Positions 738 through 54,967 of a DNA stretch of 64,000 nucleotides are shown one piece after another. Position numbers and translations under genes: made by a program. The notes beneath the pieces were generated by a model that had not been told where the DNA came from, searched no databases, and saw nothing but the letters and a program-made list of their open reading frames with translations. Origin of the DNA: Alphaproteobacteria bacterium (GTDB lineage Bacteria > Pseudomonadota > Alphaproteobacteria > CAAHEQ01 > UBA3637); the NCBI GenBank assembly GCA_015062245.1, contig SUVA01000001.1, positions 12,856 to 76,855 on the forward strand, given 5' to 3'. The stretch's first letter is position 1, and each line of letters starts with the position of its first letter.

Positions 738-1355
738 TTAATCCTTGTATGGATTATTGAACAAAAAAATCTTTTTGTCAACTAAAATATTTTGTTTTAT
801 ATCAAAAAGTGAAACAGTGGACTTGATTCCCTGAATATCCAAAATATCCCATTGTTTCAATTCCAACGTATCTTTATCAATAATCAATGTCAATTCGCCC
901 AATTCTTTTGCGTCTTTTTTGTGGGCGGTGATATAATATTCATCCAAAACATCCTGAACATCTGTTACCACAAAACCCGCATCATCAAAAACCAACTTAT
1001 CACGCAAAATCCATTCCACCGGCGTTGAATTCAATTCAAAATAATTGACCTCTTCCAAATCTTTATCATGATAGATAAAATAACCCTTTGTGGCCACAAA
1101 TTCCAAAGGCGATCCTTTTTCATATTGAAGGCGCATTTGGCCCGGACGTGAAATATAAATCGTCCCCGTTTGCAAATCGTCCTTCATTTTAGAATTGAAT
1201 TGAGCGAACTTTGCCTGTAAAGTACGCATTTTGTTATAGGCCTTTTCCACTTTATTCAAAATCGCCCGTGTTTCGGGGGTATCTATTTTTTTATCCACCA
1301 CCGCATAGGACGGCATTGAAAAAGCCAAAAGCAAAAGTAGTAAAATTTTTTTCAT
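738..1355 (-). CDS. lolA: Outer-membrane lipoprotein carrier protein LolA
   Basis: 205 aa with signal peptide; LolA-like fold signature; located downstream of ftsK as in many proteobacteria. Confidence 0.7.
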   Translation of the reverse strand: MKKILLLLLLAFSMPSYAVVDKKIDTPETRAILNKVEKAYNKMRTLQAKFAQFNSKMKDDLQTGTIYISRPGQMRLQYEKGSPLEFVATKGYFIYHDKDLEEVNYFELNSTPVEWILRDKLVFDDAGFVVTDVQDVLDEYYITAHKKDAKELGELTLIIDKDTLELKQWDILDIQGIKSTVSLFDIKQNILVDKKIFLFNNPYKD

Positions 1356-1372
1356 TTATTTTCCTTTTTAAT

Positions 1373-2179: not shown

Positions 2180-4355
2180 CTTTCAAAATTTCGCGTTTGC
2201 CGGCCACATTCGGGGCGGATATAATGCCTTCTTGTTCCATTTTTTCAATCAAAGTGGCCGCTTTGTTATATCCGATGGAAAGTCGTCTTTGAATATAACT
2301 GGTGGTTGGTTTTTTATCACGCAAGACGATTGCCACCGCTTGGTCATATAAACTGTCCCCGCTGGATGCACCGCCTGAACCACCGGATTCAGCGCCCGCC
2401 ATTTGGGCCGATTCTTCCACAACGGCATCCAAATATTTGGGTTCACCCTGGGCCGTCCAATGTTTCACCACATTGGCCACATCTTCATCCGATACAAAGG
2501 GACCATGCACACGGGTCGGTTTATTACCCGCCGGCATATACAACATATCACCACGACCCAATAATTGTTCGGCACCTTGTTCATCCAAAATGGTGCGAGA
2601 GTCAATTTTGTTTCTGACCTGGAATGAAATACGGGATGGGAAGTTGGATTTAATTGTACCCGTCACCACATCCACCGAAGGACGTTGTGTGGCCAAAATC
2701 AAATGAATCCCCACCGCACGGGCCATTTGAGCCAAACGTTGAATCAACGGATCGGCCTCTTTACCGCATTGGCCCATTAAATCGGCCATTTCATCAATGA
2801 TAAAGACGATATAAGGAAGCGGTGTTAAATCAAAGGCCTGATCTTCCATAATGGGCTGACCCGTGGCCGGATCAAAACCCGTTTGCACACGCCTTTTTAA
2901 GGTTAAATTCTTTTCTTTGGCCTCACGCAGTTTTTCGTTAAAGCCTTCTATATTACGCACACCCAGTTGGCTCATATTCCGATAGCGGTCCTCCATTTCA
3001 TGAACCGCCCACTTTAACGCCATCAACGATTTACCCGGCTCCGTCACCACTGGGGTCAATAAATGTGGAATACCGTTATAAACCGACAATTCCACCATCT
3101 TGGGATCCACCATGATTAAACGACATTGTTCGGGGGTGAAACGATATAATAAGGATAAAATCATCGTATTGATACCCACGGATTTACCCGAACCCGTTGT
3201 ACCGGCCACCAATAAGTGGGGCATCTTGGCCAAATCCGCAAAAACAGGTCGCCCACCGATATTTTTACCCAACACAATCGGCAAAGCACCTTTATGATTT
3301 TTAAAGCCGTCATCTTCTATCATTTCACGGATATAGACCGTTTCACGATTTTGATTGGGCATTTCAATACCAATCACATTACTGCCCGGCACCACCGCCA
3401 TACGCACGGATACCACTTTCATTTCACGGGCCACATCATCAGCCAAAGTAATCACACGGGAAATTTTAATACCGCTGGCCGGTTCAAATTCATATAAAGT
3501 CACCACAGGCCCTGGGCGCGCCCCCACAACTTGCCCCTGCACTTTAAATTGCATTAAAACACTTTCCAAGGAACGGGAAATCTGATTCATCTGATCCTTG
3601 CTTAAATGCACAGCCGAAGATTCTTTCACGGGCGCCAACAAATCCGAAGACGGCAATTGCAAACCAGATGCCGGTTTTGGCACCAAAGTTTGGGGTGTTT
3701 TTTTAACCGCTTTAATTTTGGATTTCGGGGCCGACTTTTTAATTTTTTCAACCTGATGATGAATACGTAATTTTTTAAATAAAACAGAAATTTTCGCCGG
3801 CAATCTGATTCCTGTTTTATGCAATAACCACCAACAACTTTTTCCCGTGGCACGGCTGATTTTTGCAAAAGGAATTTTTAATGCCCAAACAAATAAAGCC
3901 ATATCCAATGCCACCCATAAAATCATCCAATAGCCTTTGGGAATCATCCACCATCTGTTTAAATAACGACCGATAAAACCACCAACGCCGGCCTTGAACC
4001 AAGAACGGGCTGTTTCATATTGAAAATCGCCCAACAGCCACAGCGTCCACACAAAACCCAAACCCACCAAAAACAAACGCAATTTCAACCAAGCAACCTG
4101 ACGCCATAAAAAGAGGGCAAAAATCAAACAGACAATCGGAAAAACAAAAGCCATTACCCCCAACATTTGCAATAAAATATCCGCTGTCCATGCCCCGATT
4201 GGTCCCAAATAATTTTGCATATTATCGCTGGATGTATTCCATGAATTATCATGCGCATGATAACCCGCCAAAGCGATTATCACCAAAGCGGATATCATTA
4301 TCCAAAAAACAGAACGAACTTTCGGATGCGACCAAAAACGTTTAAACATCTTCAT
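2172..4355 (-). CDS. ftsK: DNA translocase FtsK
   Basis: N-terminal multi-TM region, P/S-rich linker, FtsK motor domain with Walker A (GTTGSGKSV) and C-terminal gamma winged-helix domain. Confidence 0.9.
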   Translation of the reverse strand: MKMFKRFWSHPKVRSVFWIMISALVIIALAGYHAHDNSWNTSSDNMQNYLGPIGAWTADILLQMLGVMAFVFPIVCLIFALFLWRQVAWLKLRLFLVGLGFVWTLWLLGDFQYETARSWFKAGVGGFIGRYLNRWWMIPKGYWMILWVALDMALFVWALKIPFAKISRATGKSCWWLLHKTGIRLPAKISVLFKKLRIHHQVEKIKKSAPKSKIKAVKKTPQTLVPKPASGLQLPSSDLLAPVKESSAVHLSKDQMNQISRSLESVLMQFKVQGQVVGARPGPVVTLYEFEPASGIKISRVITLADDVAREMKVVSVRMAVVPGSNVIGIEMPNQNRETVYIREMIEDDGFKNHKGALPIVLGKNIGGRPVFADLAKMPHLLVAGTTGSGKSVGINTMILSLLYRFTPEQCRLIMVDPKMVELSVYNGIPHLLTPVVTEPGKSLMALKWAVHEMEDRYRNMSQLGVRNIEGFNEKLREAKEKNLTLKRRVQTGFDPATGQPIMEDQAFDLTPLPYIVFIIDEMADLMGQCGKEADPLIQRLAQMARAVGIHLILATQRPSVDVVTGTIKSNFPSRISFQVRNKIDSRTILDEQGAEQLLGRGDMLYMPAGNKPTRVHGPFVSDEDVANVVKHWTAQGEPKYLDAVVEESAQMAGAESGGSGGASSGDSLYDQAVAIVLRDKKPTTSYIQRRLSIGYNKAATLIEKMEQEGIISAPNVAGKREILKGE

Positions 4356-24966: not shown

Positions 24967-25059
24967 GTTCGCCTCCTTACATATATTATACCACAATTTT
25001 GAAATTTGTCATAAAAAACTTTCTTTTTGGCAAAAAATATGATAAAATAAGACTGTTAT

Positions 25060-25365
25060 CTGATGATAACTATGATACTAAACGGCAAGTGGAATAGATG
25101 TTGTGGACTCGGGGGCAGTACCCGACGCCTCCACCAAAAAAATTATGGGGGCGACACAGATTCGACACGCATAGTAAAGATTTGACCTTGTATCCGGTAT
25201 GGTAGCACCGTTATCGCGCTGAAAAAAATAGATGCAAACGATAATTTTGCACCTGTTGCAATGGCCGCCTAATTTAGGCGTCTGATGTGACGAATGATTC
25301 TGAAACTATTTGTACGTTTCAGTGGGGTTTGGGGTGAACCTAGCAACAGAATCACCCCACTTTTA
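25060..25365 (+). ncRNA. ssrA: tmRNA (ssrA), two-piece circularly permuted form
   Basis: Acceptor piece ends ...TCGGG-GGCAGTA-CCCGA-CGCCTCC-A-CCA at about 25136. Ten nt later the coding piece begins GGGGGCG (pairs with CGCCUCC), then ACACAGATTCGACA. Tag reading frame GCA AAC GAT AAT TTT GCA CCT GTT GCA ATG GCC GCC TAA (ANDNFAPVAMAA*) at 25234..25272; terminal hairpin GTGGGGT...ACCCCAC plus TTTT at about 25322..25364. Ends approximate. Confidence 0.75.
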
Positions 25366-28152: not shown

Positions 28153-28177
28153 AATCCCCCACACAAGGCGGGGGATT
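28153..28177 (-). terminator. Rho-independent terminator of the hydCBA operon
   Basis: AATCCCCC-loop-GGGGGATT hairpin followed on the minus strand by TTTTTT. Confidence 0.55.
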
Positions 28178-28184: not shown

Positions 28185-29942
28185 TTACTTCTTATATAAC
28201 GGACGGGGTTGATAACTTGTATGCAACAAGTGGTGCGACCGTTCGGACAAAGGCTTACCCAAAAATTCGTCATATAATTTCTTTACATCCGGATTTTGGT
28301 GTGAGCAACGTTGTTTTGACCCACGATCATCCTGCATCAAACCGGCCATACGGGCCTGACGGATTTCGTCTGTCACACCCAAAGGCTGACCGCCACCACC
28401 GACACAACCGCCATCACAGGCCATCACCTCAATAAAGTGATAGGGCGGTTCTTCGCCTTTTTGTTCGGCTTCACGGACTTTTTCCAACAACGCCTGAACA
28501 TGGCCGATACCATGGGCAACGGCAATGCGGACTTCTTTACCCGCTAAATTCAAGGTCATTTCTTTAATACCTTTATCCAAGCCCAAAATCGGTTTGATTT
28601 CCAAAGCGTCTTCGGGCATTTCTTCACCCGTCACAACGGCATGAACGGTACGCAAAGCAGCCTCCATCACGCCACCTGTGAAACCAAAGACCGTGGCAGC
28701 CCCCGTATAAGAACCCAAGGGGCTGTCGGCCTGTTCTTCGGGCAGATTGACAAAGTCAATGCCGGCCTGTTTAATCATGCGGGCCAATTCTCGGGTGGTC
28801 AAAGACACATCCACATCTTGAAAGCCCGAGGAGAACATTTCTTCCGAACGCAGGATTTCAAATTTCTTCGCCGTACAGGGCATAATTGAAATCACACGCA
28901 TATTTTTGGCTTCCACACCGATTTTATCGGCATAGTAGGTCTTGCTTAAAGCACCCACAATTTCGTGCGGGGATTTGCAAGATGAAAAGTGCGGAATCAT
29001 ATCGCTATAGTATTTTTCCATATAATCCACCCATGCCGGACAGCAGGATGTAATCATCGGTAAAACACCTTTACCATTTACAAAGCGTTCAATAAATTCC
29101 GTGCCTTCTTCCATAATAGTGACATCTGCCCCAAAGTTGGTATCAAACACGGCATTAAAGCCCAAACGGCGCAAGGCGGCATATAACTTACCCGTTGTGA
29201 TTTCCCCCGGTTTATAGCCAAAGGCTTCACCGATAGCCACACGAACGGCTGGTGCAATTTGAACCACACAGTATTTGTCTTTATCCTGCAACATATTCCA
29301 CACATATTGTGTGTCATCACGTTCGGTTAAAGCCCCAGTCGGACAGTGGGCTGTACATTGACCGCACTTGATACAGGGGCTATTGCCCAATTTTTCATCC
29401 GCCGCCGGTGAAATATGTGTATTGATACCACGTTTTAACATGGACAAAGCCCACACATTTTGGGTGTTTTGACAAACTTCCACACAGCGACCGCAAAGGA
29501 TACATTTGCGCGGATCCAACACGATACTTTTGGTGGAATCATCCACGGGCAATTCTTCCTTGGTGGGTGTAATATCGGCAAATTCCGTATCACGAATACC
29601 AAAGTCGGCCGATAATTTTCTCAATTCGCAGGTATCGTTTTTCAAACAGGTCAAACATTCGTTCGGATGTTTGCTGAGTGTCAGTTTCAATACTGTGCGA
29701 CGAGCCTCAATAATATCGGGATCACGGGTAATGACTTCCATCCCTTCGGCAACCGGCGTACAACAAGAACGCACCATACGGCCATTGGATTTGACAATAC
29801 AAATACCACAGGCAGCAGTCGGAGGTAAATCCGGATGATGACACAGTGTCGGGATTTTAATTTGAACGGATTTGGCTGCATCCAAAATGGTTGTACCGGC
29901 CGGCACTTCCACGGTTTGAGAATCAATTGTTAATTTTACCAT
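28185..29942 (-). CDS. hydA: [FeFe]-hydrogenase catalytic subunit HydA (M3-type with N-terminal 2Fe-2S and three 4Fe-4S accessory clusters)
   Basis: H-cluster signatures L1 ITSCCPAWV, L2 MPCTAKKFE, L3 EVMACDGGCVGGGGQP; N-terminal CxxxxxxxxxxCxxC 2Fe-2S, H/C-ligated cluster (HPNECLTCLKNDTC), CILCGRCVEVC and CIKCGQCTAHCP ferredoxin motifs. Confidence 0.85.
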   Translation of the reverse strand: MVKLTIDSQTVEVPAGTTILDAAKSVQIKIPTLCHHPDLPPTAACGICIVKSNGRMVRSCCTPVAEGMEVITRDPDIIEARRTVLKLTLSKHPNECLTCLKNDTCELRKLSADFGIRDTEFADITPTKEELPVDDSTKSIVLDPRKCILCGRCVEVCQNTQNVWALSMLKRGINTHISPAADEKLGNSPCIKCGQCTAHCPTGALTERDDTQYVWNMLQDKDKYCVVQIAPAVRVAIGEAFGYKPGEITTGKLYAALRRLGFNAVFDTNFGADVTIMEEGTEFIERFVNGKGVLPMITSCCPAWVDYMEKYYSDMIPHFSSCKSPHEIVGALSKTYYADKIGVEAKNMRVISIMPCTAKKFEILRSEEMFSSGFQDVDVSLTTRELARMIKQAGIDFVNLPEEQADSPLGSYTGAATVFGFTGGVMEAALRTVHAVVTGEEMPEDALEIKPILGLDKGIKEMTLNLAGKEVRIAVAHGIGHVQALLEKVREAEQKGEEPPYHFIEVMACDGGCVGGGGQPLGVTDEIRQARMAGLMQDDRGSKQRCSHQNPDVKKLYDEFLGKPLSERSHHLLHTSYQPRPLYKK

Positions 29943-29954
29943 CGTTTTATTTCC

Positions 29955-31715
29955 TTATCTTTTTGTGTTGATATTACAGGCATTGATTTCTTTTTCGGTT
30001 TCAACCGCATCCGGTTCATTCCCGTCAATCAATAACGCATCATATTCTTCTTTAAAGAACTTCATGGTTGACAAAACCGGATTGGGGGCTGTTTGGCCTA
30101 AACCACACAAAGAAGCCTTTTGCATGGCGTTTCCGATTTCCTTGATTTTGGCCACATCCGCTTTGGTGCCTTTGCCATCGGCAATTTTGTTCATTAATTG
30201 CAACATTTGATATCCACCAATACGGCATGGCGCACACTTACCACAGGATTCATCCACCGTAAAGCCCAAATAGAACTTGGCAATTTCAACCATACTGTCG
30301 TCTTCATCCATGATAATCATACCGCCTGAGCCCATCATAGAACCGATTTTTTTCAATTCTTCATAGCATAACGGCATATGCAGTTCGCTGGCCGGTATCA
30401 CACCACCGGAAGGACCGCCCGTTTGAACGGCCTTAAAGGGCTTACCGGAACTGGTCCCGCCACCGACGTCGTTCACCATTTCACCAACGGTTGTTCCCAT
30501 CGGCACTTCCACAAGACCTGAATGTTTCACTTTACCGGTGATGGCAAAAACTTTTGTGCCTTTGGACGTTTCGGTGCCAACTTCGCTGAACCATTCGGGA
30601 CCGTTGACCATAATCGGTGCAATATTGGCCAAAGTTTCCACGTTGTTGATGGCCGTCGGCTTATCAAACAATCCTTTTTGTGTCGGGAATGGTGGACGGG
30701 GACGTGGTGTACCGCGCTTACCTTCCACAGACGACATCAGGGCTGTTTCTTCACCACACACAAAGGCCCCAGCCCCATAACGGATATCCGCCATAAAGTT
30801 AAAGTCTGTGCCAAAAATGTTGCGGCCCAAAATACCATAGCGTTTGGCCTGTTTAATTGCCAATTCCATCCGCTGAATCGCCAAAGGATATTCGGCACGG
30901 ATATAGAACCATCCGTTGGTGGCCCCTGTCGCATAGGCACCAATCATCATCCCTTCCAATACGGCATGGGAACCACCACCTAAAATACACGAATCCATAT
31001 AGGCGCCCGGATCGCCTTCATCACCGTTACAAATCATAAACTTTTCACCGTCAACCAAGGGCGATTTGGCCAGCATTTCCCACTTGACACCTGTGGGGAA
31101 TCCGCCACCGCCACGACCACGCAAGCCGGACTTTTTAATCACTTCCAACACTTCTTCGGGTTTCATGGTCAAAGCCTTCATCAACCCCTGATAACCACCG
31201 TTGGCAATATATTCGCCCAAATCTTCGGGATCCGAATGGCCCAACAAACGCAATACGATTTTACGTTGTTTTTGGAAAAACGGCAAATCCAAAGAAAGTT
31301 CTTGTTGTTTCAAATAATCCGAAGTATTGATTTCGCCTTCTGATTTCAACGCCGGTGCCACATGCTCGGCCACAATCAATCGGGCCATATCGGGCGTTAC
31401 ATGTTGATATAATACAGGCTTTTGACCTTTAATTTCCACACGGGCCAAAGGACCGGAGGCACACAACCCCATACAACCGGTGCAAACCATACGCACATCG
31501 GCTTCTATACCGGCCGATTTTAAAGCTTCTTTAAAAGTATCAATCACACTGGATGCACCACCTGAATGACAGCTGGTGGCATTACAGGTGTAAATGGACG
31601 CCTTAAAATGGGCCACACGTTCTTTAAATTCATCACCCAATTTTAACAATGTTTCTTTTTGGGTGCGCCCCAAAGCTTTTAATTTTTCAACTTGTTCTTG
31701 TGACAATTCTACCAT
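29955..31715 (-). CDS. hydB: NuoF-like flavoprotein subunit HydB (FMN/NAD(P)H-binding, 2Fe-2S + 4Fe-4S clusters)
   Basis: GRGGGGFPTG FMN motif; N-terminal thioredoxin-like 2Fe-2S domain (CTGCMGLCASGP); C-terminal CGKCAPCR-type ferredoxin motifs; 586 aa as in trimeric bifurcating hydrogenases. Confidence 0.8.
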   Translation of the reverse strand: MVELSQEQVEKLKALGRTQKETLLKLGDEFKERVAHFKASIYTCNATSCHSGGASSVIDTFKEALKSAGIEADVRMVCTGCMGLCASGPLARVEIKGQKPVLYQHVTPDMARLIVAEHVAPALKSEGEINTSDYLKQQELSLDLPFFQKQRKIVLRLLGHSDPEDLGEYIANGGYQGLMKALTMKPEEVLEVIKKSGLRGRGGGGFPTGVKWEMLAKSPLVDGEKFMICNGDEGDPGAYMDSCILGGGSHAVLEGMMIGAYATGATNGWFYIRAEYPLAIQRMELAIKQAKRYGILGRNIFGTDFNFMADIRYGAGAFVCGEETALMSSVEGKRGTPRPRPPFPTQKGLFDKPTAINNVETLANIAPIMVNGPEWFSEVGTETSKGTKVFAITGKVKHSGLVEVPMGTTVGEMVNDVGGGTSSGKPFKAVQTGGPSGGVIPASELHMPLCYEELKKIGSMMGSGGMIIMDEDDSMVEIAKFYLGFTVDESCGKCAPCRIGGYQMLQLMNKIADGKGTKADVAKIKEIGNAMQKASLCGLGQTAPNPVLSTMKFFKEEYDALLIDGNEPDAVETEKEINACNINTKR

Positions 31716-31732
31716 CTTTTATCTCCTTACGC

Positions 31733-32218
31733 TTACATTGCCATTGTTTCACGCCATTCGGCAATAATTTTCGGCACTTCCAACGGGGTTACACGGCCGT
31801 ATGTTTTGCCATTGACAACCACAACGGGGGCCAAACCGCAACACCCTAAACAACGCACCACCTGAATATAAAACAAACCGTCATCTGTTGTAATACCGGC
31901 CTTCACACCCAATTCGGATTCAAATGCATCAATAACGGATTGGCTTCCCTTAATATGACAGGCTGTACCATCACAAATAGAAATAACAACTTTTCCCGGC
32001 GGATTTAATTTAAAGTGATTATAAAACGTTAAAACGGAATAAATTTGAGCCATCGGAATCTTTAATTCTTCGGCCACCACTTCCATGGAACACCACGGCA
32101 CATAACCAAATGCCCCTTGGATTTCGTGCAAAGCCATGATTAAAGAACCACGTTTGCTTTTCCACTTGACCATCATTTTTTTGGTCTCTTCTTGTATTTT
32201 TGCTTTATCTTCGGACAT
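31733..32218 (-). CDS. hydC: NuoE-like thioredoxin-fold 2Fe-2S subunit HydC
   Basis: CDGTACHIKG ... VRCLGCCGLAP motif; start at 32218 (MSEDKAKIQ) with RBS AAGGAGAA. Confidence 0.75.
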   Translation of the reverse strand: MSEDKAKIQEETKKMMVKWKSKRGSLIMALHEIQGAFGYVPWCSMEVVAEELKIPMAQIYSVLTFYNHFKLNPPGKVVISICDGTACHIKGSQSVIDAFESELGVKAGITTDDGLFYIQVVRCLGCCGLAPVVVVNGKTYGRVTPLEVPKIIAEWRETMAM

Positions 32219-32252
32219 TATATTCTCCTTTTTTGTTTTAAAGATATTTTCG

Positions 32253-32280
32253 TTATAACATATATTAAAATAATACGCAA
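32253..32280 (-). promoter_or_regulatory. Candidate sigma70-like promoter for hydCBA
   Basis: On the minus strand, TTGCGT-16 nt-TATAAC about 30 nt upstream of the hydC RBS. Confidence 0.4.
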
Positions 32281-32300
32281 GAATTTTTGAACAAATAAAA

Positions 32301-32325
32301 ACCACCGTTTTATCGGTGGTTTTTA
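32301..32325. terminator. Bidirectional terminator downstream of tyrS
   Basis: ACCACCG-TTTTAT-CGGTGGT hairpin with flanking A5 and T5. Confidence 0.55.
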
Positions 32326-33935: not shown

Positions 33936-34493
33936 ATGAATTTTATAAAATTAAAAAAGAAAAAAGATCGGTTTGAATTTTATTTGTTTGGACATAAAAT
34001 TGTTTTTTACCGATATCTTCGTATTCTCAGGGAAATTTTTTTAATGGTTCACTATAACCAACTTAAAGAAACCCTGAAAACAAAATTTAACATCACACTG
34101 CCCAAAGAAGCCTATCATCATTTATCCGGAAATGTGGAAATTGTAAAACTTGCCTTAAAAGATTTACATGTCCCATGCGGACACAGAAAAACATGCCCCA
34201 TTGATGAAACACAAACCTATAAATATTTAAAGAATAAGAGCGCTAATTACACCTATCGCAACAAAGATTTTTATTGTGAAGCCGATGTATTTTTACCGGT
34301 TGATGAAAGTGACACTGCTAAAAGAATGTTAGAGCTGGTTAAATCATTAACACAAAAAGACGAATATGATCCATCAAAATGTGTGATTGTTGTTCGCAAA
34401 AACAATGCCATTATAGACGGCCAACATCGTGCCGCTGTTTTATATCATAAATACGGACCAAACCACAAAGTTTTGGTTGTTCGTGAAAGATAA
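33936..34493 (+). CDS. ParB/Srx-like N-terminal domain protein
   Basis: C-terminal VVRKNNAIIDGQHRAAVL resembles the ParB-type catalytic/CTP-binding motif; RBS GAAAGGAAA. Confidence 0.45.
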   Translation: MNFIKLKKKKDRFEFYLFGHKIVFYRYLRILREIFLMVHYNQLKETLKTKFNITLPKEAYHHLSGNVEIVKLALKDLHVPCGHRKTCPIDETQTYKYLKNKSANYTYRNKDFYCEADVFLPVDESDTAKRMLELVKSLTQKDEYDPSKCVIVVRKNNAIIDGQHRAAVLYHKYGPNHKVLVVRER

Positions 34494-42092: not shown

Positions 42093-42714
42093 AAAAAATG
42101 ATAAAAAAAGGTATAAAGAAAATATGTTTGAAGAATTAGAAAAAATTAAATCAGAATGTCAAAATTGTATGCGTTGCCCTTTGGGGAAAACACGCACAAA
42201 TGTTGTTTTTTCGGCCGGTGTCCCCAATTCGGATATCGTTTTAATCGGTGAAGCGCCCGGCTATAACGAAGATATGACAGGTGAACCTTTTGTGGGGCGT
42301 GCCGGTCAGTTGCTGGATAAGATTTTGGAATCGGTCGGTTTTTCACGCAAAGAAAACATTTATATTTGCAACACAATTAAATGTCGTCCGCCCGATAACC
42401 GTGATCCTTTGCCCGAAGAAAAATCGGCCTGCCGTGAATATTTAAACAGGCAGTTGGATTGTTTGAAGCCCAAAATTATCTTATTGTGCGGTCGGGTGGC
42501 TTTAACATCATTTATTGAAACAAAGCAGGGTATTTCAAAAATACGGGGCCATTGGTTTGACGGGCCCAACGGCGCCAAGATGATGCCGATTTTTCATCCG
42601 TCCTATTTGCTCAGAAATCCGTCCCATAAAGAAGGTTCGCCCAAATGGTTGATGTGGCAGGATATGAAAGAAATCCGCCGTGTTTATGATGAACTTAAAA
42701 CAGGTTTGGCATAA
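42076..42714 (+). CDS. Family 4 uracil-DNA glycosylase (4Fe-4S type)
   Basis: GEAPGYNEDMTGEPFVGRAGQLLD motif; Cys ligands (CQNCMRCPL ... CNTIKCRPP); HPSYLLRNP near C-terminus. Confidence 0.8.
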   Translation: MNFLIEKNDKKRYKENMFEELEKIKSECQNCMRCPLGKTRTNVVFSAGVPNSDIVLIGEAPGYNEDMTGEPFVGRAGQLLDKILESVGFSRKENIYICNTIKCRPPDNRDPLPEEKSACREYLNRQLDCLKPKIILLCGRVALTSFIETKQGISKIRGHWFDGPNGAKMMPIFHPSYLLRNPSHKEGSPKWLMWQDMKEIRRVYDELKTGLA

Positions 42715-43130
42715 AAATGCAAAACATCCGTCAATCGTGGTAATTTAATAATCACATCAAAGGTATATCTGTCCACAATATGATATTCTTTTAAATCAGA
42801 ACGATATAAAATCAATTCTTCACAAAACCGACCGACAATTAAAGCCTTTGCAAATAATTGTTTTAATGAATATTCCATTTGATAGGCCAACAAAGTCGGT
42901 TGGCCAAAAACAGAATCCCGTCTTTCGTGTTCATGGATGGAAAACAACTCCAATCCGTTCCACGATAAACCGTCTGTAATATGTAAAAATTGAATGTAAT
43001 CTGATGGTATTTGAATCCAACCTTTTTTAACCAAAGAAATAGAGGTTCGTTGAATGTCCATCATTTGCGCCGGCGAAAAAAATTGAGCGTAATTTTGATA
43101 AAGGGTATTCAAGATGGTGTTGATGCTCAT
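42684..43130 (-). CDS. Hypothetical protein, last gene of the T4CP operon
   Basis: 148 aa; start ATG overlaps the upstream stop as TAATG; no recognisable motif. Confidence 0.45.
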   Translation of the reverse strand: MSINTILNTLYQNYAQFFSPAQMMDIQRTSISLVKKGWIQIPSDYIQFLHITDGLSWNGLELFSIHEHERRDSVFGQPTLLAYQMEYSLKQLFAKALIVGRFCEELILYRSDLKEYHIVDRYTFDVIIKLPRLTDVLHFYAKPVLSSS

Positions 43131-43807
43131 TATCGTCCCCCTGTTTTGACGGCAATTTGTTGCAAATTGGCACTGCTTAAACCGGCCTGAGTGGAACGGT
43201 CTGATTTTTTCTTGCCCCCTGAACCTGTCATTTCACCGTTGGGAATGTAAATTTTACCCAAAGGCACAGGAATGTATAAAGTTTGCGGATGGCCCACACC
43301 GGCCGAAGTTAAAATTTGTTGATTGATATATTTGTGAATCAATTCATGAAAGGGGTGAATGGGAATCAAAACCAAATTATCCATATCCAAATTGCCCCCA
43401 TATAACAACGGATATTTTAAATGCACCGTCCAATTGGTGGGTAAAATCCCCTTGGACATATAAAAGATACTTTCTTCGGATATATCAGCACTGCGTAAAT
43501 CGTTCACATATTGGGCGACTAAATCTTTTAAAAAAAAGTGTTTAAGTTTTTCCAGTTTTTGATGAAATTCAGCTTCATTTATCGTATGCGGATAATAATT
43601 GGCCGACATCAATTCCATGCCAGCAAAATTTTCCTGTTGAAATAAATCCACCCAATAATCTTGATTTTTTATATCCGAATCCAACCCCTCCATCAAACCA
43701 TCCAAACCAATGGAATCCGTTTGTGTTTTGGGTGCCGAATTATCCATCAACTGGTCCCAGTTGTCATAAATTTCATTGCCGTCCAATTCTGTCAGATTTT
43801 CATCCAT
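43130..43807 (-). CDS. Acidic hypothetical protein co-operonic with the T4CP (candidate adaptor/chaperone)
   Basis: 225 aa; D/E-rich N-terminal half; Cys-free; overlaps the T4CP stop by 8 nt. Confidence 0.45.
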   Translation of the reverse strand: MDENLTELDGNEIYDNWDQLMDNSAPKTQTDSIGLDGLMEGLDSDIKNQDYWVDLFQQENFAGMELMSANYYPHTINEAEFHQKLEKLKHFFLKDLVAQYVNDLRSADISEESIFYMSKGILPTNWTVHLKYPLLYGGNLDMDNLVLIPIHPFHELIHKYINQQILTSAGVGHPQTLYIPVPLGKIYIPNGEMTGSGGKKKSDRSTQAGLSSANLQQIAVKTGGR

Positions 43808-46088
43808 TTAAATCATCCTTGGGTAGTGGTGGTTGAAAAGTCGGTGCTGAGGTCGGTGGTGCAAAAACCCCCTGACCCTGAGGCGGTAAAATTGCCTGAA
43901 CGGGTTGCGCATTATTTTGAAGTTGAATTTGTTGTTCTGTACTTTCTTGCGGTTGAGGTTCTTCCGATTTTTGTTGTTGGTTTTCCGGCGCCCGTCTGTC
44001 CACAATCCATTGGGGAATATATGGGGCGGTCGGAATCTGAGTCTTTTTCAAAAAGCCTTTATCCAAATAATACCGTGGTGCATCGGCCAAAATCGGATGC
44101 GATAAGAACCCTTGGAACAAAACATACTGTTTTAACATATCCAAACTTAAAATATCCGAAGCACTGACCACATCTGATTTTTGCAATTGACGGGATACGT
44201 TTTGCGAAAAGTCAAACATTTTTTGTCCTCCGCCTTCTTGTTTGGATGTGCTTTTAACTTCAATCGTTTTGGAACCAATCATTTTTACAAAACGTTCGGC
44301 TGTTTGTTCGTTGTTTTGGGATAAAATAACTTTTGCCGCCGTTGTTGAAATAATTGTTTCCAAATCGTCTTTACCGTATTGGCCGGAAATTTGGCCTAAA
44401 TCCTGCCCGATTAACAAATAGGCCACCTTTTGTCCACGACCAACAGCCGGACCGTTTTTCACACAATCCAGTTTTGGCATTTGCGGGAATTCGTCCAACA
44501 CGAACAAAACAGGACAAGGCCCACATTTTTTGCCGTCATTACCCACATACCCCGGCGGATTAGCAATTAAAAATGAACTGACCAATTCCACAAAGATACC
44601 CGTAATCACGTTCAAAGCACGGGCATCCACTTGGTTAATGGACAAATAAACGGAAATCGGTTTGATTTTGCCGTCCGCCGGATCCACCATACCACGCAAA
44701 TCACGGAAAGTAAAATCACTGAATTTGGTTCGTTCTTTTACAGCCGCATTTTTAAAAATACTGATACCTGACAAAGCGGTTGATAAAATTGACCCACGTT
44801 CTTTATCGGGCGTACTGGATAACTGATTTAATTCGGCAATAGCCCGACGGGCATAAGCAAAGCGATTACTTTCATTCACGGCCGCATCCAACACGTCCTT
44901 CATGGGATCGGCCATCATGGCCATTTGATCGCCTTCATCGGAACGGCGTTTAATATCGGCGGCGATTTTCATCTGCATATCGGTCAGCCATTCCAAAATC
45001 ATGGCAATACACGGTTCATGCCCGTGCCAGATTTCAGGCAAACCTTCCCACGTACCGACAGGCGCATAGTTATTTAAATTCAGCTGTCCTTTTTTCAAAG
45101 CATCCAAAGCAATCAAGGCACTGTTATCGGACATATCGGCATAATAGGTGGCCAAAACATTGGCGTCTTCTTGATCAAAAGAACCTTCGGATAACTTGTT
45201 GATAAAATAATCGTTGGCACGGGCCCGTTCGCATTTGCTGGCAATAAAGTGCAAAAAACCACTCATGGCATTACGACCTGTTTTACACCAGTGCGGATCT
45301 GCTCCCCCTTTGGGTTCTTCCACCAACACGGCCACCATAGAGTCAATATACATATCTCGGGCCGGTCCCAACGGGGGCAATGCCGTGGGCGATAAAGGAT
45401 TCCAGCTGGGATAAAAGACACCGTTTTGCGGTTCGTCTTGGGCGCCCCAGTTGATGATAAAAACAGGGCCTATTTTATTACGATAACCTGATGTTTGATA
45501 GCATAATTCGGGTTTCACGTCATTGACAATAATACTTAAAGAATCAGATTCAAAAATCGTGGGAATAACCACGCCGGCGGTTTTACCCGTTCCCGGCGGT
45601 GCCACCACCAAGGCGGATAAAGTGTTGGGCATTTTTAACAAACGCCCCTTAAAACGCCCCAAAACGCAACAGAATCCATCAAACAGCCCCATCTTTTTAA
45701 TATCCTGATAGGAGGCCAAACGGCCACTGCCAAAAACGGTGGACAGATTGGAATATGGGTTCGTATACAATCCGACAAAAATAATAATAGGAATAACGGC
45801 AATCGGAATAAACGGCAAAAACATTGCCACAGGCACAGGGGAAATTTCACGAAATTGTTTTATCCAATTGGCATAGGTAATAATAATTTTGCTGGGATGT
45901 AAAAATGCCTTTGACCAAAAATCCCAAGCAATGCCAACCAACGAAATATCCCCCGATAACAACCAATGTGTGATTGGTAAAATCAACAAAGACAATATCC
46001 ACGAACAAAACAATGCAAAAAGAACAGAAAGTATAACATGAGAAATATACTTATTTTTTTCTTTATATTGATCGTCTGCCATTTTCAT
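43800..46088 (-). CDS. Type IV secretion coupling protein (VirD4/TraG/DotL family ATPase)
   Basis: Two N-terminal TM helices, then FGSGRLASYQDIKKMGLF. Walker A VVAPPGTGKTAGVVIPT (compare VirD4/TraG APTRSGKGVGxVIPT) and Walker B VLFVLDEFPQMPKL. About 60-aa Q/P-rich disordered C-terminal tail. Confidence 0.8.
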   Translation of the reverse strand: MKMADDQYKEKNKYISHVILSVLFALFCSWILSLLILPITHWLLSGDISLVGIAWDFWSKAFLHPSKIIITYANWIKQFREISPVPVAMFLPFIPIAVIPIIIFVGLYTNPYSNLSTVFGSGRLASYQDIKKMGLFDGFCCVLGRFKGRLLKMPNTLSALVVAPPGTGKTAGVVIPTIFESDSLSIIVNDVKPELCYQTSGYRNKIGPVFIINWGAQDEPQNGVFYPSWNPLSPTALPPLGPARDMYIDSMVAVLVEEPKGGADPHWCKTGRNAMSGFLHFIASKCERARANDYFINKLSEGSFDQEDANVLATYYADMSDNSALIALDALKKGQLNLNNYAPVGTWEGLPEIWHGHEPCIAMILEWLTDMQMKIAADIKRRSDEGDQMAMMADPMKDVLDAAVNESNRFAYARRAIAELNQLSSTPDKERGSILSTALSGISIFKNAAVKERTKFSDFTFRDLRGMVDPADGKIKPISVYLSINQVDARALNVITGIFVELVSSFLIANPPGYVGNDGKKCGPCPVLFVLDEFPQMPKLDCVKNGPAVGRGQKVAYLLIGQDLGQISGQYGKDDLETIISTTAAKVILSQNNEQTAERFVKMIGSKTIEVKSTSKQEGGGQKMFDFSQNVSRQLQKSDVVSASDILSLDMLKQYVLFQGFLSHPILADAPRYYLDKGFLKKTQIPTAPYIPQWIVDRRAPENQQQKSEEPQPQESTEQQIQLQNNAQPVQAILPPQGQGVFAPPTSAPTFQPPLPKDDLNG

Positions 46089-46094: not shown

Positions 46095-47237
46095 TTATGA
46101 TAAAATTTGTTTTATTTGTTGAATGGTATCTTCCGGCAACGGTTCATATTGTTTGTTTAAAATCTCACCCAGTGTTTTTAATTCCACCGGTCCGCCAATA
46201 TCCGTTCGGCATACAATAACCCCTAAATCATTCCAAGTTCTGAGCATATCTTCGGCATTTATCAGATTCCCTTTGCGTTCAATCAACATCGGTTGAACCT
46301 TTAAATCAAAACCGGCTGAGGTCAGTTTTTGGCCAACGGCCTTCGTTTGTTGAATCAATTCAAAAACAGGCGATACCCGATGATCCGTTTCCGAAAACCA
46401 CAAAGGATCTTCGTCATTAAACGCTTCTTCATCGGCCAACCAATCCCCCTCAATATCGTCATAAATTGCCCACAACATTTGCCCCTGACAAACGGCCACC
46501 AAATCAGGCTTTTTATTGCCCAAATCAATATCCGATAAAATGGTCCACCCTGTATTTATTAAAAGTTCATGGGCGTTTTCTTCAACCGCCTGATGTGTGG
46601 GTAATTGAATTTCATCCAACGGCATATCGGCCATTTGTTTCAAATCGGGTTCAATCGGATTCCACACATTATCCGGCATAGACGGCGTTGGCGAAAAATC
46701 TTGATGATTTGTTGCGGGCGCATTTGCATAAGATGGCATTTCAGTCGACATCGGATTGGATTGCGCAAAACTTTGTTGTTGAACGGGTTGCGCACGCATT
46801 GTGGGGCCCATTGTCGGCATCGGCATCGGGCGTTGCGCCGAAATCGGTGGCGCCTTAACCGTTTTATGTGATGAATGCGACCGATTTTTGTGTTCAGAAT
46901 GTTTTGAGGCAGGGGTTATTTTTTTCTTGATATGTTGGATATGCTTTTGGGGCAACGTTCCCACCTTTTTTGCCGAAGAACGCCACTGTATCTTATTGGC
47001 CCAATACCAAATTCCCAAATACATGGGAATAACCAAAATAAAGGAAATTAAAAAAATCCAATCCCCAACGCTGGATACACGCCATCCGGCGTTTATTTCC
47101 TGAAACAAAAAACGCCACGATTCACTTGAAAAAAGGTTAAAATTCCAATTGATTTGCAAAAAACCACGGAACCACCACCCAAAAAACAGCAGTGCCACAA
47201 CAAAACCAATCAATAAAGTCCTTTTCGGATTTTGCAT
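46095..47237 (-). CDS. Two-TM inner-membrane protein with large cytoplasmic domain, first gene of the T4CP operon (DotM/IcmP-like by size and architecture?)
   Basis: Start at 47237 (MQNPKRTLLIGFVVALLFFGWWF) with RBS AAAGGAAATAAA, giving 380 aa. Two TM segments, a P/Q/M-rich linker and an acidic C-terminal domain. Ends 6 nt before the T4CP start. Confidence 0.5.
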   Translation of the reverse strand: MQNPKRTLLIGFVVALLFFGWWFRGFLQINWNFNLFSSESWRFLFQEINAGWRVSSVGDWIFLISFILVIPMYLGIWYWANKIQWRSSAKKVGTLPQKHIQHIKKKITPASKHSEHKNRSHSSHKTVKAPPISAQRPMPMPTMGPTMRAQPVQQQSFAQSNPMSTEMPSYANAPATNHQDFSPTPSMPDNVWNPIEPDLKQMADMPLDEIQLPTHQAVEENAHELLINTGWTILSDIDLGNKKPDLVAVCQGQMLWAIYDDIEGDWLADEEAFNDEDPLWFSETDHRVSPVFELIQQTKAVGQKLTSAGFDLKVQPMLIERKGNLINAEDMLRTWNDLGVIVCRTDIGGPVELKTLGEILNKQYEPLPEDTIQQIKQILS

Positions 47238-47325
47238 TTTATTTCCTTTTTCTGATGTTATTATACACAAAACAAAAGCATTTGACCAGCAAAAAATGCG
47301 ATAATTAAAAAAAATAGGAACAGAC

Positions 47326-47354
47326 TTGTAAAACAAACAAAAATAAGGTATAAT
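47326..47354 (+). promoter_or_regulatory. Sigma70-like promoter of the J-domain gene (divergent from the T4CP operon)
   Basis: TTGTAA-17 nt-TATAAT. Confidence 0.45.
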
Positions 47355-53288: not shown

Positions 53289-54020
53289 ATGAAATCAGTT
53301 CAAATTGAATTAAAAAATGTACATAAAGCTTTTGGAAAAAAGGTTGTTTTGGACGGTGTGGATTTAACGGTTCACAAAGGTGAATCGGTTGTGATTATCG
53401 GGGGCTCCGGAACAGGTAAATCGGTTACATTGAAATGCATTTTGGGATTGTTAAAACCGGATAAAGGTTCGGTCAAATTTAACGGCAATCAAATTGGTAT
53501 GTTGTTCCAAGGGGCGGCTTTATTTGACAGTTTATCCGTTTGGGAAAATGTGGCTTTTGCCGTTTTGCAACAATCGGGGATGACACGTGAAAAGGCCAAA
53601 AAAATTGCCATTCAAAACTTGGCCGAAGTCGGATTAAAACCGGAGGTCGCTGATGTTTATCCGGCCGATTTATCGGGCGGTATGAAAAAACGGGTGGGAT
53701 TGGCCCGTGCCATTGCCACAAAACCCGATACATTGTTCTTTGACGAACCGACCACAGGGTTGGATCCCATTATGTCAGATGTCATCAACGATTTAATCGT
53801 GAATTCCGTGAAAAAATTGGGGGCAACAGCACTGACCATTACACATGATATGCAAAGTGCCAAAAAAATTGCCGATCGGATTGCCATGTTGTATGAAGGC
53901 AAAATTATTTGGATGGGTACAGTTAAAGAATTGGAAAAAACAAAAAATCCTTATGTGCGTCAATTTGTGGCGGGGTCTTCCAAAGGCCCCATCCAAATGC
54001 AAGTAAAGGCAGATGAATGA
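53289..54020 (+). CDS. mlaF: ABC transporter ATP-binding protein MlaF
   Basis: GGSGTGKSV, LSGGMKKRVGLARAI, FFDEPTTGLDP. Confidence 0.85.
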   Translation: MKSVQIELKNVHKAFGKKVVLDGVDLTVHKGESVVIIGGSGTGKSVTLKCILGLLKPDKGSVKFNGNQIGMLFQGAALFDSLSVWENVAFAVLQQSGMTREKAKKIAIQNLAEVGLKPEVADVYPADLSGGMKKRVGLARAIATKPDTLFFDEPTTGLDPIMSDVINDLIVNSVKKLGATALTITHDMQSAKKIADRIAMLYEGKIIWMGTVKELEKTKNPYVRQFVAGSSKGPIQMQVKADE

Positions 54021-54637
54021 TAATTAAAATTTTAGTCTTTTTATGGATTTTTATTCTTCCTATATTGTCTTTTTTATGGGAAGTTTTTTATGGAAAAACA
54101 AACCCTGTTCCCGTTTTAAATTCAAAAGGAAAAAAAGAATTTCAAAAATATTTTGGTATTTCTTTTATTGTTTCAATATTTATTTTCGTAACCGCTTATG
54201 GGTTGATATACACAAATTCAATTTCCGAATTTATAGAAAAAATAATCATTTTTTTTAAACAGCCTCTGTGGGTATTATGTGTTGTTGAAATTATGTATAT
54301 AGATACGTTTATTGCTGTGACATTTGAATTTTTGATGGGAAGGCACAAAGAAAAAAAATATTTTAATTGGAAATGGATAAAAAATAATTGGCCAATGATA
54401 AAGGCTTCTTTACCCAATATGCGGATTTTATGGTATATCCATCTTTTGGTTGTTTTCTTATCGGTTCGTAATATTTCAGATCAAGAAAGTATCTTTATAT
54501 TGTTGGTTTATCCGATAACATCGTATCTTTATGCTAAAAACGTTTATGCTTATTATATTTTTAAAAACAAAGGTTTTTGCGACTTAAACAGCGAAGAAAC
54601 CCAAAGTGAACAGAAATTCTTTTTAAAAGGCAGATAA
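54017..54637 (+). CDS. Hypothetical polytopic membrane protein (very AT-rich)
   Basis: 206 aa rich in F, I, K and Y; start overlaps the mlaF stop (ATGA); GC clearly below flanking genes. Confidence 0.4.
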   Translation: MIIKILVFLWIFILPILSFLWEVFYGKTNPVPVLNSKGKKEFQKYFGISFIVSIFIFVTAYGLIYTNSISEFIEKIIIFFKQPLWVLCVVEIMYIDTFIAVTFEFLMGRHKEKKYFNWKWIKNNWPMIKASLPNMRILWYIHLLVVFLSVRNISDQESIFILLVYPITSYLYAKNVYAYYIFKNKGFCDLNSEETQSEQKFFLKGR

Positions 54638-54967
54638 ATGATTAAATTTAATCTGATTTTACTTACAATTAAAAGGATTATTTTTGAGACAAAACAATTG
54701 CGTGAAATCTGTCCCAAATATAAAAAACATGTTTATTTTTATTTTATAGCTCTGTGGGTATTGGCATTCTCTACACCTTTTATTCCATTTCAATATGTCT
54801 TTTTATATTTGGTTTCACTTGTTGTAATTATTTTATTTTGGATGTGTTGTGAAAAAGAAACCAGAATAAAAGTATTTAGATTTATAGTAAGATTATTGCT
54901 GGCTCTTATATTATTAAGTATATTATTTATCTTTTTAGGACAATGGTTTTCTGGAGGGAAATTTTAA
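54638..54967 (+). CDS. Hypothetical small membrane protein (very AT-rich)
   Basis: 109 aa; begins at the TAAATG junction with the preceding ORF; three hydrophobic segments. Confidence 0.35.
   Translation: MIKFNLILLTIKRIIFETKQLREICPKYKKHVYFYFIALWVLAFSTPFIPFQYVFLYLVSLVVIILFWMCCEKETRIKVFRFIVRLLLALILLSILFIFLGQWFSGGKF

Follow-up and report, generated by a model that had tools for sequence, protein, structure and literature searches.

Heterotrimeric [FeFe]-hydrogenases in which a catalytic subunit, HydA, is joined by NuoF-type (HydB) and NuoE-type (HydC) subunits include the electron-bifurcating HydABC enzymes of the Bfu family, for which structures have been solved from T. kivui (8A6T), A. woodii (7Q4V) and T. 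maritima (7P5H; Schut et al., 2022; Katsyv et al., 2023). The family is defined by the Fer4 domain of the BfuB subunit (IPR017896), which carries clusters B3 and B4, and its non-bifurcating homologues are described as lacking clusters B2-B5 (Schut et al., 2022, PMC9304861). Ferredoxin docks on HydB's C-terminal domain, deletion of which from P565 in T. kivui results in low bifurcating activity (Katsyv et al., 2023, PMC10021017), and B3/B4 have been called essential (Li et al., 2025, PMC11829005). Clusters of NuoE, NuoF and M3-type HydA genes, accompanied by HydE, HydF and HydG, have also been reported from gut Alphaproteobacteria and Pleomorphomonas (Degli Esposti et al., 2016, PMC4967309). 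An operon of this kind, hydCBA, is present in the 64,000-nt stretch of contig SUVA01000001.1 (assembly GCA_015062245.1) analyzed here; the whole stretch is referred to as the window, and open reading frames (ORFs) and positions are counted from its first letter. The product of the operon is probably a functional heterotrimeric [FeFe]-hydrogenase of the cytoplasm, coupling the NAD+/NADH pool to H2 in a fermentative rumen or gut alphaproteobacterium, and the enzyme is predicted to descend from the HydABC/Bfu lineage without a built-in ferredoxin branch.

The operon consists of three intact minus-strand ORFs at 28185-29942 (585 aa), 29955-31715 (586 aa) and 31733-32305, in the order hydC-hydB-hydA, the last of these ORFs most likely being used from an internal ATG (see below):

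31733..32218, minus strand: hydC, NuoE/HoxE-like thioredoxin-fold [2Fe-2S] subunit, 161 aa from ATG
29955..31715, minus strand: hydB, NuoF-like FMN/NAD(H) subunit, 586 aa
28185..29942, minus strand: hydA, M3-type [FeFe]-hydrogenase catalytic subunit, 585 aa

The genes are separated by 17 nt (hydC/hydB) and 12 nt (hydB/hydA), each is preceded by an AAGGAG or AAGGAA ribosome-binding site, and the same co-oriented NuoE-like/NuoF-like/hydA arrangement is found in at least 70 related loci. ORFs, Pfam and NCBIfam matches and spacing all agree with the proposal of a first-pass annotation of this DNA that hydCBA is complete and encodes a heterotrimeric [FeFe]-hydrogenase with NuoE/NuoF-type subunits. 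By the adjacency of its genes the locus is a multimeric HydABC-type hydrogenase operon, equivalent to HydDB group A3 in the broad sense; under a HydDB-style rule, a group A HydA encoded beside a NuoF-like gene is placed in group A3. Gene set and order are those of the hymABC-like clusters of 'Azospirillum sp. CAG:239', 'Acetobacter sp. CAG:977' and Pleomorphomonas (PMC4967309), the gut members of which are, like the window host, uncultured gut Alphaproteobacteria.

The catalytic subunit can be divided into two parts:

29313..29942, minus strand: HydA F-domain, residues 1-210, recognized from Pfam matches to Fer2_4, NADH-G_4Fe-4S_3, Fer4_7 and Fer4_Nqo3 and from Cys patterns
28203..29276, minus strand: HydA H-domain with small-subunit-like tail, residues 223-580, recognized from the motifs TSCCPAW, MPCTAKKFE and EVMACDGGCVGGGGQP and from Pfam

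The H-cluster motifs, which were sought as L1 TSCCP, L2 MPCxxKxxE and L3 ExMxCxxGCxxGGGQP, are all retained in HydA (TSCCPAW, MPCTAKKFE and EVMACDGGCVGGGGQP), including the four Cys ligands. As had been claimed, these motifs and the accessory Fe-S sites are present, and the motifs can be aligned to active enzymes of known structure, matching column by column those of T. kivui and A. woodii HydA1, HydA2 of the hydrogen-dependent CO2 reductase (HDCR) and the Desulfovibrio enzyme. Pfam detects Fer2_4, NADH-G_4Fe-4S_3 (the His-ligated cluster), a 2x[4Fe-4S] dicluster, Fe_hyd_lg_C (E 4e-94) and Fe_hyd_SSU (E 8e-25). The F-domain clusters comprise a [2Fe-2S], a His-ligated [4Fe-4S] (H92/C96/C99/C105) and two further [4Fe-4S] (C147/150/153/157 and C190/193/196/200), the same set as in T. 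kivui HydA, and T. kivui HydA1 is also the best solved-structure match (615 bits). HydA scores above the cut-offs of both NCBIfam NF040763, 'NADH-dependent [FeFe] hydrogenase, group A6' (801 bits; cut-off 765), and TIGR02512 (511 bits; cut-off 406). On its motifs, profiles and F-domain, HydA is assigned as an M3-type group A [FeFe]-hydrogenase catalytic subunit.

HydB matches the Pfam families Complex1_51K (Nuo51 FMN-binding), SLBB, NADH_4Fe-4S (NuoF) and, at the N-terminus, 2Fe-2S_thioredx, and contains the following segments:

31368..31604, minus strand: HydB N-terminal thioredoxin-like [2Fe-2S] domain, residues 38-116 (Pfam PF01257, 29.6 bits; Cys44/49/81/85)
30618..31139, minus strand: HydB FMN/NAD(H)-binding domain, residues 193-366 (Pfam PF01512, E 2e-41)
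29958..30287, minus strand: HydB [4Fe-4S] B1/N3 domain, residues 477-560, plus tail (Pfam PF10589, E 1e-30; Cys491/494/497/537)

The FMN domain displays the motifs GRGGGGFPTG, G-A238-Y-M240-D and GAGA-F318-VCGEE, and a GGPSG sequence is located at 433-437. Among solved structures HydB is best matched by Bfu-type HydB (620 bits, against the T. kivui/A. woodii HydABC and NiFe-Bfu enzyme set), whereas complex I NuoF reaches 270-384 bits. HydC is a NuoE/HoxE-like protein, as previously annotated (Pfam 2Fe-2S_thioredx, PF01257, E 7e-48), with T. kivui HydC as its best solved match (145 bits), so that all three window subunits find their best solved matches in the HydABC/Bfu enzymes of T. kivui, A. 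woodii and T. maritima. Shared between the window proteins and these enzymes are the HydC (BfuC) [2Fe-2S] cluster C1, the HydB FMN site, B1, the N-terminal [2Fe-2S] and, surrounding the flavin, AxM, Phe and GGPSG.

The two part company at the C-terminus of HydB. Bfu HydB possesses a C-terminal ferredoxin-like domain (B3/B4) and hinge Cys/His/Cys ligands, and window HydB is without both. Pfam detects no Fer4 domain in HydB, the sole [4Fe-4S] site of which is the NuoF N3/B1 cluster, and the core is followed by a tail of ~20-26 residues, with a single Cys and no CxxCxxCxxxC motif, that stands in place of the hinge and the 2x[4Fe-4S] domain. Alignments to the bifurcating chains stop where the core of those chains stops (query residues 35-569 against 2-535 of the 599-residue A. 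woodii chain, and 23-566 against 10-563 of the 630-residue T. kivui chain), and the end of window HydB coincides with the cut point of the T. kivui C-terminal deletion variant (P565). Since hydA begins 12 nt past the hydB stop codon, a C-terminal domain hidden by a frameshift can be dismissed. The earlier description of HydB is therefore upheld for its length of 586 aa, NuoF homology, FMN motif and 2Fe-2S domain and has to be corrected for an extra 4Fe-4S domain, in the place of which there is no Fer4 match and one tail Cys.

The 76 HydB proteins encoded beside the closest HydA homologues include both states. A C-terminal extension of ~70 residues with two CxxCxxCxxxC motifs is present in 45 of them, from Omnitrophota, Spirochaetota, Fibrobacter and PVC (Planctomycetes, Verrucomicrobia and Chlamydiae) phyla, and is absent from the remaining 31, which comprise all of the alphaproteobacterial proteins and some from Chloroflexi, Acidobacteria and Sumerlaeota. 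As a control, Pfam recovers Fer4 in a domain-bearing HydB (locus L011) and in none of four HydB without the extension. All close relatives of window HydB, including those of the sister-subclade metagenome-assembled genomes (MAGs) described below, are likewise without the C-terminal domain, as is Pleomorphomonas HydB, and because this state is shared by all close relatives the missing domain is not an assembly artefact. The hinge ligands, a Cys before the B1 motif followed by a His and a Cys after the four-helix bundle (the B2/Zn site of the structural papers), are Cys/His/Cys in all 45 domain-bearing proteins. The corresponding residues of window HydB are S474, L561 and E567, and in the 31 proteins without the domain these columns hold Ser/Asp/Asn, Lys/Arg/Leu and Glu or a gap, almost never Cys/His. 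Because the hinge ligand columns are replaced along with the absent C-terminal domain, the whole ferredoxin-branch module is judged to be gone from HydB in a coherent way. In the HydB tree, proteins with and without the C-terminal domain part at one split, which has moderate support (109/200).

The residues around the flavin follow a different pattern. Ala-x-Met, Phe and GGPSG (A238/M240 and F318 in the window) are invariant in all 76 HydB proteins, and of the 31 proteins without the C-terminal domain, 24-29 retain the Cys residues of the N-terminal [2Fe-2S] site (44, 49, 81, 85). In the domain-bearing operon at L011 a small gene for a thioredoxin-like [2Fe-2S] protein was confirmed to lie between hydC and hydB, which makes it of the tetrameric type, and a similar hydC-hydB gap is seen in the other domain-bearing operons checked; the alphaproteobacterial operons have neither a gap gene nor linked maturases. 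Separately, the hydB gene of a Spirochaetales MAG (L021, 1167-2882) lies inside the domain-bearing clade, yet the tail of its product is only 44 residues long, contains 4 Cys and is without a complete Fer4 motif; truncation, frameshift or partial loss on an independent occasion may account for this.

These observations bear directly on the canonical Bfu electron-bifurcating mechanism, which was the preferred interpretation of the first-pass annotation and rested on an architecture known mainly from Firmicutes and Thermotogae. The solved-structure matches of all three subunits and the bifurcating-type FMN-pocket motifs speak for such an enzyme, and a HydDB-style rule would file it as group A3. 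Because the defining Fer4 domain and the hinge ligands are absent, however, the window enzyme is not a member of Bfu, and with the C-terminal domain and hinge site of HydB missing, its mechanism cannot be exactly that of the T. maritima, T. kivui or A. woodii enzymes. The short interval before hydA leaves no room for the IPR017896 domain, and the same state in all close relatives argues in the same direction. A canonical Bfu enzyme is accordingly rejected at the level of architecture and is considered very improbable.

The flavin-pocket residues can be compared with those of enzymes that do not bifurcate. Losey et al. (2020) describe the non-bifurcating beta subunit by its residues at three positions of T. 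maritima HydB, namely Thr/Ser at 232, Lys/Ser/Ala at 234 and Tyr at 367, and by the lack of GGPSG. When these positions are mapped by motif context, with A202 and M204 in the A. mobile chain as a check, window HydB is found to have Ala, Met and Phe, together with GGPSG. Since A238/M240, F318, GGPSG and the N-terminal [2Fe-2S] Cys are residues of the bifurcating type (Losey et al., 2020), there are signs that gating at the flavin site has been kept. The NADH-dependent enzymes typified by Syntrophomonas wolfei are also NuoE/NuoF-coupled [FeFe]-hydrogenases with a beta subunit that is devoid of a ferredoxin route, but these beta subunits have Thr/Ser, Lys and Tyr and no GGPSG or N-terminal [2Fe-2S], window HydB being the opposite at every position; on these residues, membership of the S. 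wolfei-type family is rejected. A count of Fe-S domains gives a mixed picture, with the C-terminal clusters gone and the N-terminal [2Fe-2S] kept; the authors of the fewer-Fe-S-domains criterion themselves call it unreliable. Published rules thus conflict for this HydB subtype, domain content indicating a non-bifurcating enzyme and flavin-pocket residues a bifurcating one.

One way in which the conflict could be settled is that the enzyme depends strictly on NADH and does not bifurcate, being functionally of the S. wolfei Hyd1ABC type, and that it arose by loss of the ferredoxin branch from a Bfu-type ancestor. It would then be a simple NADH:H+ oxidoreductase, working only if H2 consumers keep H2 low; the rumen and gut hold H2-consuming methanogens, which favors such a role. 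HydB without the 2x[4Fe-4S] domain and hinge ligands is what would be expected of this enzyme type, non-bifurcating homologues having been described without these clusters (PMC9304861), and the low bifurcating activity of the T. kivui HydB C-terminal deletion (PMC10021017) is consistent with it. The operon and the window contain no ferredoxin-like gene, and the NCBI family to which HydA belongs bears the name 'NADH-dependent', although this name probably derives from older literature and does not constitute a test. Against an enzyme driven by NADH alone are the Ala/Met, Phe and GGPSG residues of HydB, which are not those of non-bifurcating subunits, and the retention of an N-terminal [2Fe-2S] domain that is absent from S. 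wolfei-type subunits. In addition, such enzymes reached just 2-40 Pa H2 in vitro (PMC7311640), which would be low for the gut, and HoxF, which has the same architecture, is reported in a preprint to require ferredoxin for H2 production (see below). A strictly NADH-dependent enzyme of this origin is a serious alternative but the less probable one.

The Hox system provides a precedent for the other solution. In a 2026 preprint, the bidirectional hydrogenase HoxEFUYH of cyanobacteria, whose diaphorase module is HoxEF, is reported to bifurcate and confurcate with NAD(H) and soluble ferredoxin (bioRxiv 10.64898/2026.06.25.734504). As described, HoxF combines an N-terminal [2Fe-2S] with an FMN/NADH domain and a single [4Fe-4S] and is devoid of a C-terminal ferredoxin domain, which is the layout of window HydB, and it carries AFM, Phe and GGPSG, a likeness drawn from the published description. 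The catalytic partners are different, that of Hox being [NiFe] HoxYH, connected via HoxU, and that of window HydB being [FeFe] HydA. HoxE (NF005747) is the best NCBIfam family for HydC, but the score of 150.8 bits falls under the cut-off of 224, and the N-terminus of HydA scores 157.5 bits against HoxU (NF005745), under the cut-off of 333; since neither curated cut-off is reached, the resemblance to Hox is one of architecture only.

The preferred reading of hydCBA, as a functional hydrogenase connecting the NAD+/NADH pool and H2, draws on the presence, by sequence homology, of every cofactor site for a route from NADH via FMN, B1 and the HydA clusters to the H-cluster. By reference to homologous structures, NADH would deliver a hydride to FMN in HydB, electrons would pass from the B1 [4Fe-4S] of HydB through the accessory clusters of HydA to the H-cluster, and protons would there be converted to H2, with the [2Fe-2S] of HydC and the N-terminal [2Fe-2S] of HydB flanking the flavin. 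Fermentative reducing equivalents would in this manner be disposed of as H2, the enzyme acting as an H2-evolving NADH oxidase. By analogy with Hox confurcation, the balance tips slightly toward soluble reduced ferredoxin also being needed as a co-donor, which would dock at a non-canonical site; NADH serving as the only donor is somewhat less likely than that, although far from negligible.

Several points weigh against the preferred reading, in particular against its ferredoxin-dependent form. The published definition of Bfu and the view of B3/B4 as essential predict no bifurcation (PMC9304861, PMC11829005), the precedent from Hox concerns a [NiFe] enzyme and comes from a preprint without peer review, and the conserved FMN-pocket motifs may merely reflect ancestry. 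No characterized enzyme of the subtype without the C-terminal domain was found in the literature, and the catalytic direction (H2 evolution or uptake) is deduced from lifestyle only. Both maturation of the holoenzyme and supply of ferredoxin are assumptions, and the genes concerned are not in the vicinity: no ferredoxin, pyruvate:ferredoxin oxidoreductase (PFOR) or Rnf genes were found in the window, the window encodes no HydE, HydF or HydG, and a motif scan found no maturase within 10 kb of the operon in any of 22 alphaproteobacterial loci. It is suggested only tentatively that HydB proteins which lack the C-terminal domain and hinge while keeping bifurcating-type motifs and the N-terminal [2Fe-2S] may mark a mechanistically distinct, biochemically uncharacterized class of HydABC enzymes, which would be an [FeFe] counterpart of HoxEFUYH. 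Of the 76 sampled HydB, the 31 of this form came from gut Alphaproteobacteria, from Pleomorphomonas and from a number of Chloroflexi and Acidobacteria.

The absence of maturase genes from the window, which had been noted before, is borne out by a CX3CX2C scan, in which no ORF of at least 90 aa has the motif, and by Pfam searches of most ORFs of at least 135 aa. The radical S-adenosylmethionine (SAM) motif scan covered 84 loci, and at the alphaproteobacterial ones it detected only one unrelated RlmN-like gene. Most non-alphaproteobacterial relatives, in contrast, have HydG-like (~460-540 aa) and HydE-like (~330-390 aa) radical-SAM genes within 10 kb of hydA, at loci with a domain-bearing HydB (L011, L020, L023-L025, L028, L031, L035, L045, L050, L061, L062, L065, L066, L069-L071, L075 and L081); these genes are located downstream of hydA, or upstream in L045 and L070. 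Small 2x[4Fe-4S] ORFs or very large ORFs near the operon are likewise lacking in the window and in 23 alphaproteobacterial loci, and because there are no linked ferredoxin or PFOR candidates, gene context is no guide to ferredoxin coupling. A search of 5.8 billion proteins with an acidobacterial HydG (from L033) as query returned Acidobacteria and other phyla, with none labelled alphaproteobacterial, among its best 120 matches, and is uninformative for the window lineage. Unlinked HydE, HydF and HydG have been described in related gut Alphaproteobacteria (Degli Esposti et al., 2016, PMC4967309); in those genomes, unlike in the window, all three are shown.

The same data are relevant to the suggestion that hydCBA is a relic, inactive or without catalytic function (a pseudo-hydrogenase or a sensor), in a genome that perhaps has no HydE, HydF or HydG. 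The empty 64-kb window is compatible with a relic, as is the contrast between the alphaproteobacterial loci and the relatives with linked HydG/HydE-like genes. However, all catalytic motifs and Fe-S ligands are intact, and dN/dS (the ratio of nonsynonymous to synonymous substitution rates) is 0.04-0.07 for hydA, hydB and hydC in comparison with three orthologous operons, at dS values above 1, which are saturating; hydCBA is under strong purifying selection. The unlinked maturases of related gut Alphaproteobacteria (PMC4967309) also detract from a relic. A pseudogene is rejected on its intact ligands and low dN/dS, the H-cluster half of the pseudo-hydrogenase scenario raised with the first-pass annotation fails for the same reasons, and an inactive relic of any kind appears highly unlikely.

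The relatives of the window enzyme were taken from the 80 best species-representative loci, and neighbor-joining trees of HydA and HydB were built (numpy implementation, 200 bootstraps). By HydA identity, 'Alphaproteobacteria bacterium UBA3637' (91%) is the nearest species-level genome, ahead of a MAG from yak rumen (88%) and of further alphaproteobacterial MAGs from ruminant, chicken and human gut (60-70%). The gut and rumen alphaproteobacterial sequences form a single clade (HydA 199/200, HydB 200/200) with two congruent subclades; the window falls in the ruminant-MAG subclade, and MAGs labelled Azospirillum, Scatocola and Alphaproteobacteria make up its sister, to the Azospirillum/Scatocola sequences of which window HydA is only 60-65% identical. 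About 24 of the 80 loci are alphaproteobacterial, NCBI has already annotated such proteins in alphaproteobacterial MAGs, and the 2016 paper reported the cluster (PMC4967309), so that the earlier description of these hydrogenases as rare in Alphaproteobacteria was overstated. Unlike the gut clade, the enzymes of free-living Pleomorphomonas (L019, L022, L040) side with that of acidobacterial Terracidiphilus (L033), as does a Rhodobacterales MAG (L047), also free-living, in a group with 200/200 support that never joins the gut clade. Because these enzymes stand apart from the gut clade, the operon was acquired at least two times in Alphaproteobacteria. In the gut lineage the operon seems to be old and to have been passed on vertically: the ancestor of the gut alphaproteobacterial clade would have acquired the operon long ago, an ancient transfer that is likely, with vertical descent since.

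The host is an alphaproteobacterium, as had been proposed, and the window carries the two-piece tmRNA of this class:

25016..25361, plus strand: two-piece (permuted) alphaproteobacterial tmRNA (Rfam RF01849, 240.5 bits, gathering score 50; RF04321, 144 bits; ARAGORN)

The tmRNA is 3 kb from hydA in the same contiguous sequence, the nearest HydA loci all belong to alphaproteobacterial MAGs, and the Hda lid domain and RNase E/G of the first-pass annotation were also found in the window. The surroundings are housekeeping in nature, with Pfam matches to FtsK, Hda, HisS, Obg, RNase E, AmiC, FabF, MltG, TyrS, MscL, ComEC, UDG, Mla transporters, RadA, PgsA and UvrC. Ruminant gut Alphaproteobacteria of the order RF32 have reduced genomes of ~1.6 Mb (PMC8199421) and UBA3637 is a rumen taxon according to one paper; an RF32-like placement is suggested for the window genome. 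An identical HydA is present in two JGI metagenomes and one ENA metagenome.

A foreign source for the operon, through contamination by a Firmicute contig or through horizontal insertion in recent times, might be supposed from the overall GC content of hydA and hydB (0.47 against a window mean of 0.395, the excess residing in codon positions 1 and 2) and from synteny, since the closest operons (L004, 84%; L005, 91%; L006, 88%) have entirely different neighbors and the position of hydCBA between tyrS and mltG is specific to the window genome. The comparison with flanking genes that had been recommended nevertheless gives a native third-position GC content (GC3) for hydA and hydB of 0.46-0.47 (z = +1.2 to +1.3), within the range of housekeeping neighbors such as mltG (0.456) and fabF (0.428). 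The intergenic spaces, at 93 and 111 bp, are too short to hold a mobile element, and the operon is contiguous with the alphaproteobacterial tmRNA and with the RNase E, fabF, mltG and tyrS genes. The gut alphaproteobacterial clade has the near-maximal support given above, and no Firmicute occurs among the 80 closest species loci except one contig of a 'Lactobacillus sp.' MAG (L017, JAISFX010000163.1), whose hydB-hydA pair (61-3375) is nested in the gut alphaproteobacterial clade in both trees and whose HydB lacks the C-terminal domain; this contig is probably misbinned. Contamination, which had been put forward as a way in which the annotation could fail, and recent transfer are both rejected on contiguity, composition and phylogeny, and a foreign origin of this sort is improbable in the extreme.

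That this type of cluster occurs in gut Alphaproteobacteria is already known, and the useful lead is the uncharacterized HydB subtype without a C-terminal domain. With the window, a rumen lineage of Alphaproteobacteria with small genomes joins the producers or consumers of H2 that feed methanogens. The operon adds little to the debate on hydrogenosomes and mitochondria, in which the first-pass annotation had seen its interest, the cluster having been reported in 2016 and HydB and HydC matching the Bfu-type lineage far better than complex I. The polyphyly of Alphaproteobacteria in the enzyme trees points to horizontal acquisition and not to alphaproteobacterial ancestry, and together with the Bfu-type match it means that no new support is gained for an alphaproteobacterial origin of hydrogenosomal enzymes. 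Because annotation rules disagree for this HydB subtype, metagenomic surveys in which all such operons are labelled 'group A3, bifurcating' may misassign a sizeable group. If confurcation without B3/B4 proves true, it would contradict the view of these clusters as essential; if the enzyme instead uses NADH only, despite all of its 'bifurcating' residues, the motif-based predictors applied to metagenome hydrogenases would be invalidated.

Transcription of hydCBA appears to be delimited by the following elements:

32296..32325, both strands: bidirectional tyrS terminator hairpin, separating tyrS from hydC (perfect 12-bp stem, A-run/T-run flanks)
32252..32280, minus strand: candidate hydCBA promoter (TTGCGT, 17 nt, TATAAC), identified by eye
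28153..28177, minus strand: intrinsic-terminator-like hairpin after hydA (10-bp stem with 6 G-C pairs, then TTTTTATT)

The GTG at 32305 from which the longest hydC ORF starts, and which had been taken as the 5′ end of the operon, falls within the tyrS terminator hairpin. Because this hairpin overlaps the 5′ end of the longest ORF, the start given in the ORF list is misleading, and hydC most likely starts at the ATG at 32218, which has an AAGGAG 6 nt upstream and from which HydC is of normal length. The tight spacing and terminator previously attributed to the operon are confirmed, the strong terminator-like hairpin and T-run (28177-28153) beginning 8 nt past the hydA stop codon. The promoter likewise attributed to it is limited to the by-eye candidate, which has a TG two bases upstream of its -10 hexamer; a consensus promoter scan did not report TTGCGT-17-TATAAC at 32280-32252, and the 16 promoter-like matches that it found in this AT-rich region are not above chance (12.8 +/- 4.2 expected).

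A number of other loci in the window deviate from its housekeeping character. Beyond tyrS, a 185-aa ORF at 33936-34493 (plus strand), located between tyrS and mscL, has a GC3 of 0.27 and no Pfam match; its IIDGQHR motif is, on a by-eye reading only, reminiscent of ParB-like nuclease domains. A gene at 43800-46088 (minus strand) encodes a VirD4/TraG-type coupling protein of type IV secretion systems (T4SS-DNA_transf, E 2e-54; TraG-D_C; TrwB) and is situated amid three ORFs without a Pfam match, including 42684-43807 and 46095-47336 (both minus strand), in an otherwise housekeeping region. The locus could be a remnant or part of a type IV secretion system or conjugative element. Two small ORFs within 54017-54967 (plus strand), between an Mla-type ABC ATPase gene and radA, are composition outliers without a Pfam match (GC 0.25-0.27, GC3 0.19-0.25). 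At one end of the window, an ORF at 9-716 (minus strand) has an N-terminal signal-like sequence and an ankyrin-repeat match (Ank_4, E 1e-6), a kind of protein typical of bacteria associated with hosts. Toward the other end, 61707-62360 and 62678-63319 (both minus strand) are tandem paralogues of 50% identity (E 2e-58). The N-terminus MRETVRKKLKDGHIQ is common to the two, as is a C-terminus rich in Lys/Glu. GC3 in the pair is very low at 0.22-0.24 (z about -2.1 to -2.5), their sole Pfam signal is a weak hint of MORN repeats, and they may be foreign or effector-like.

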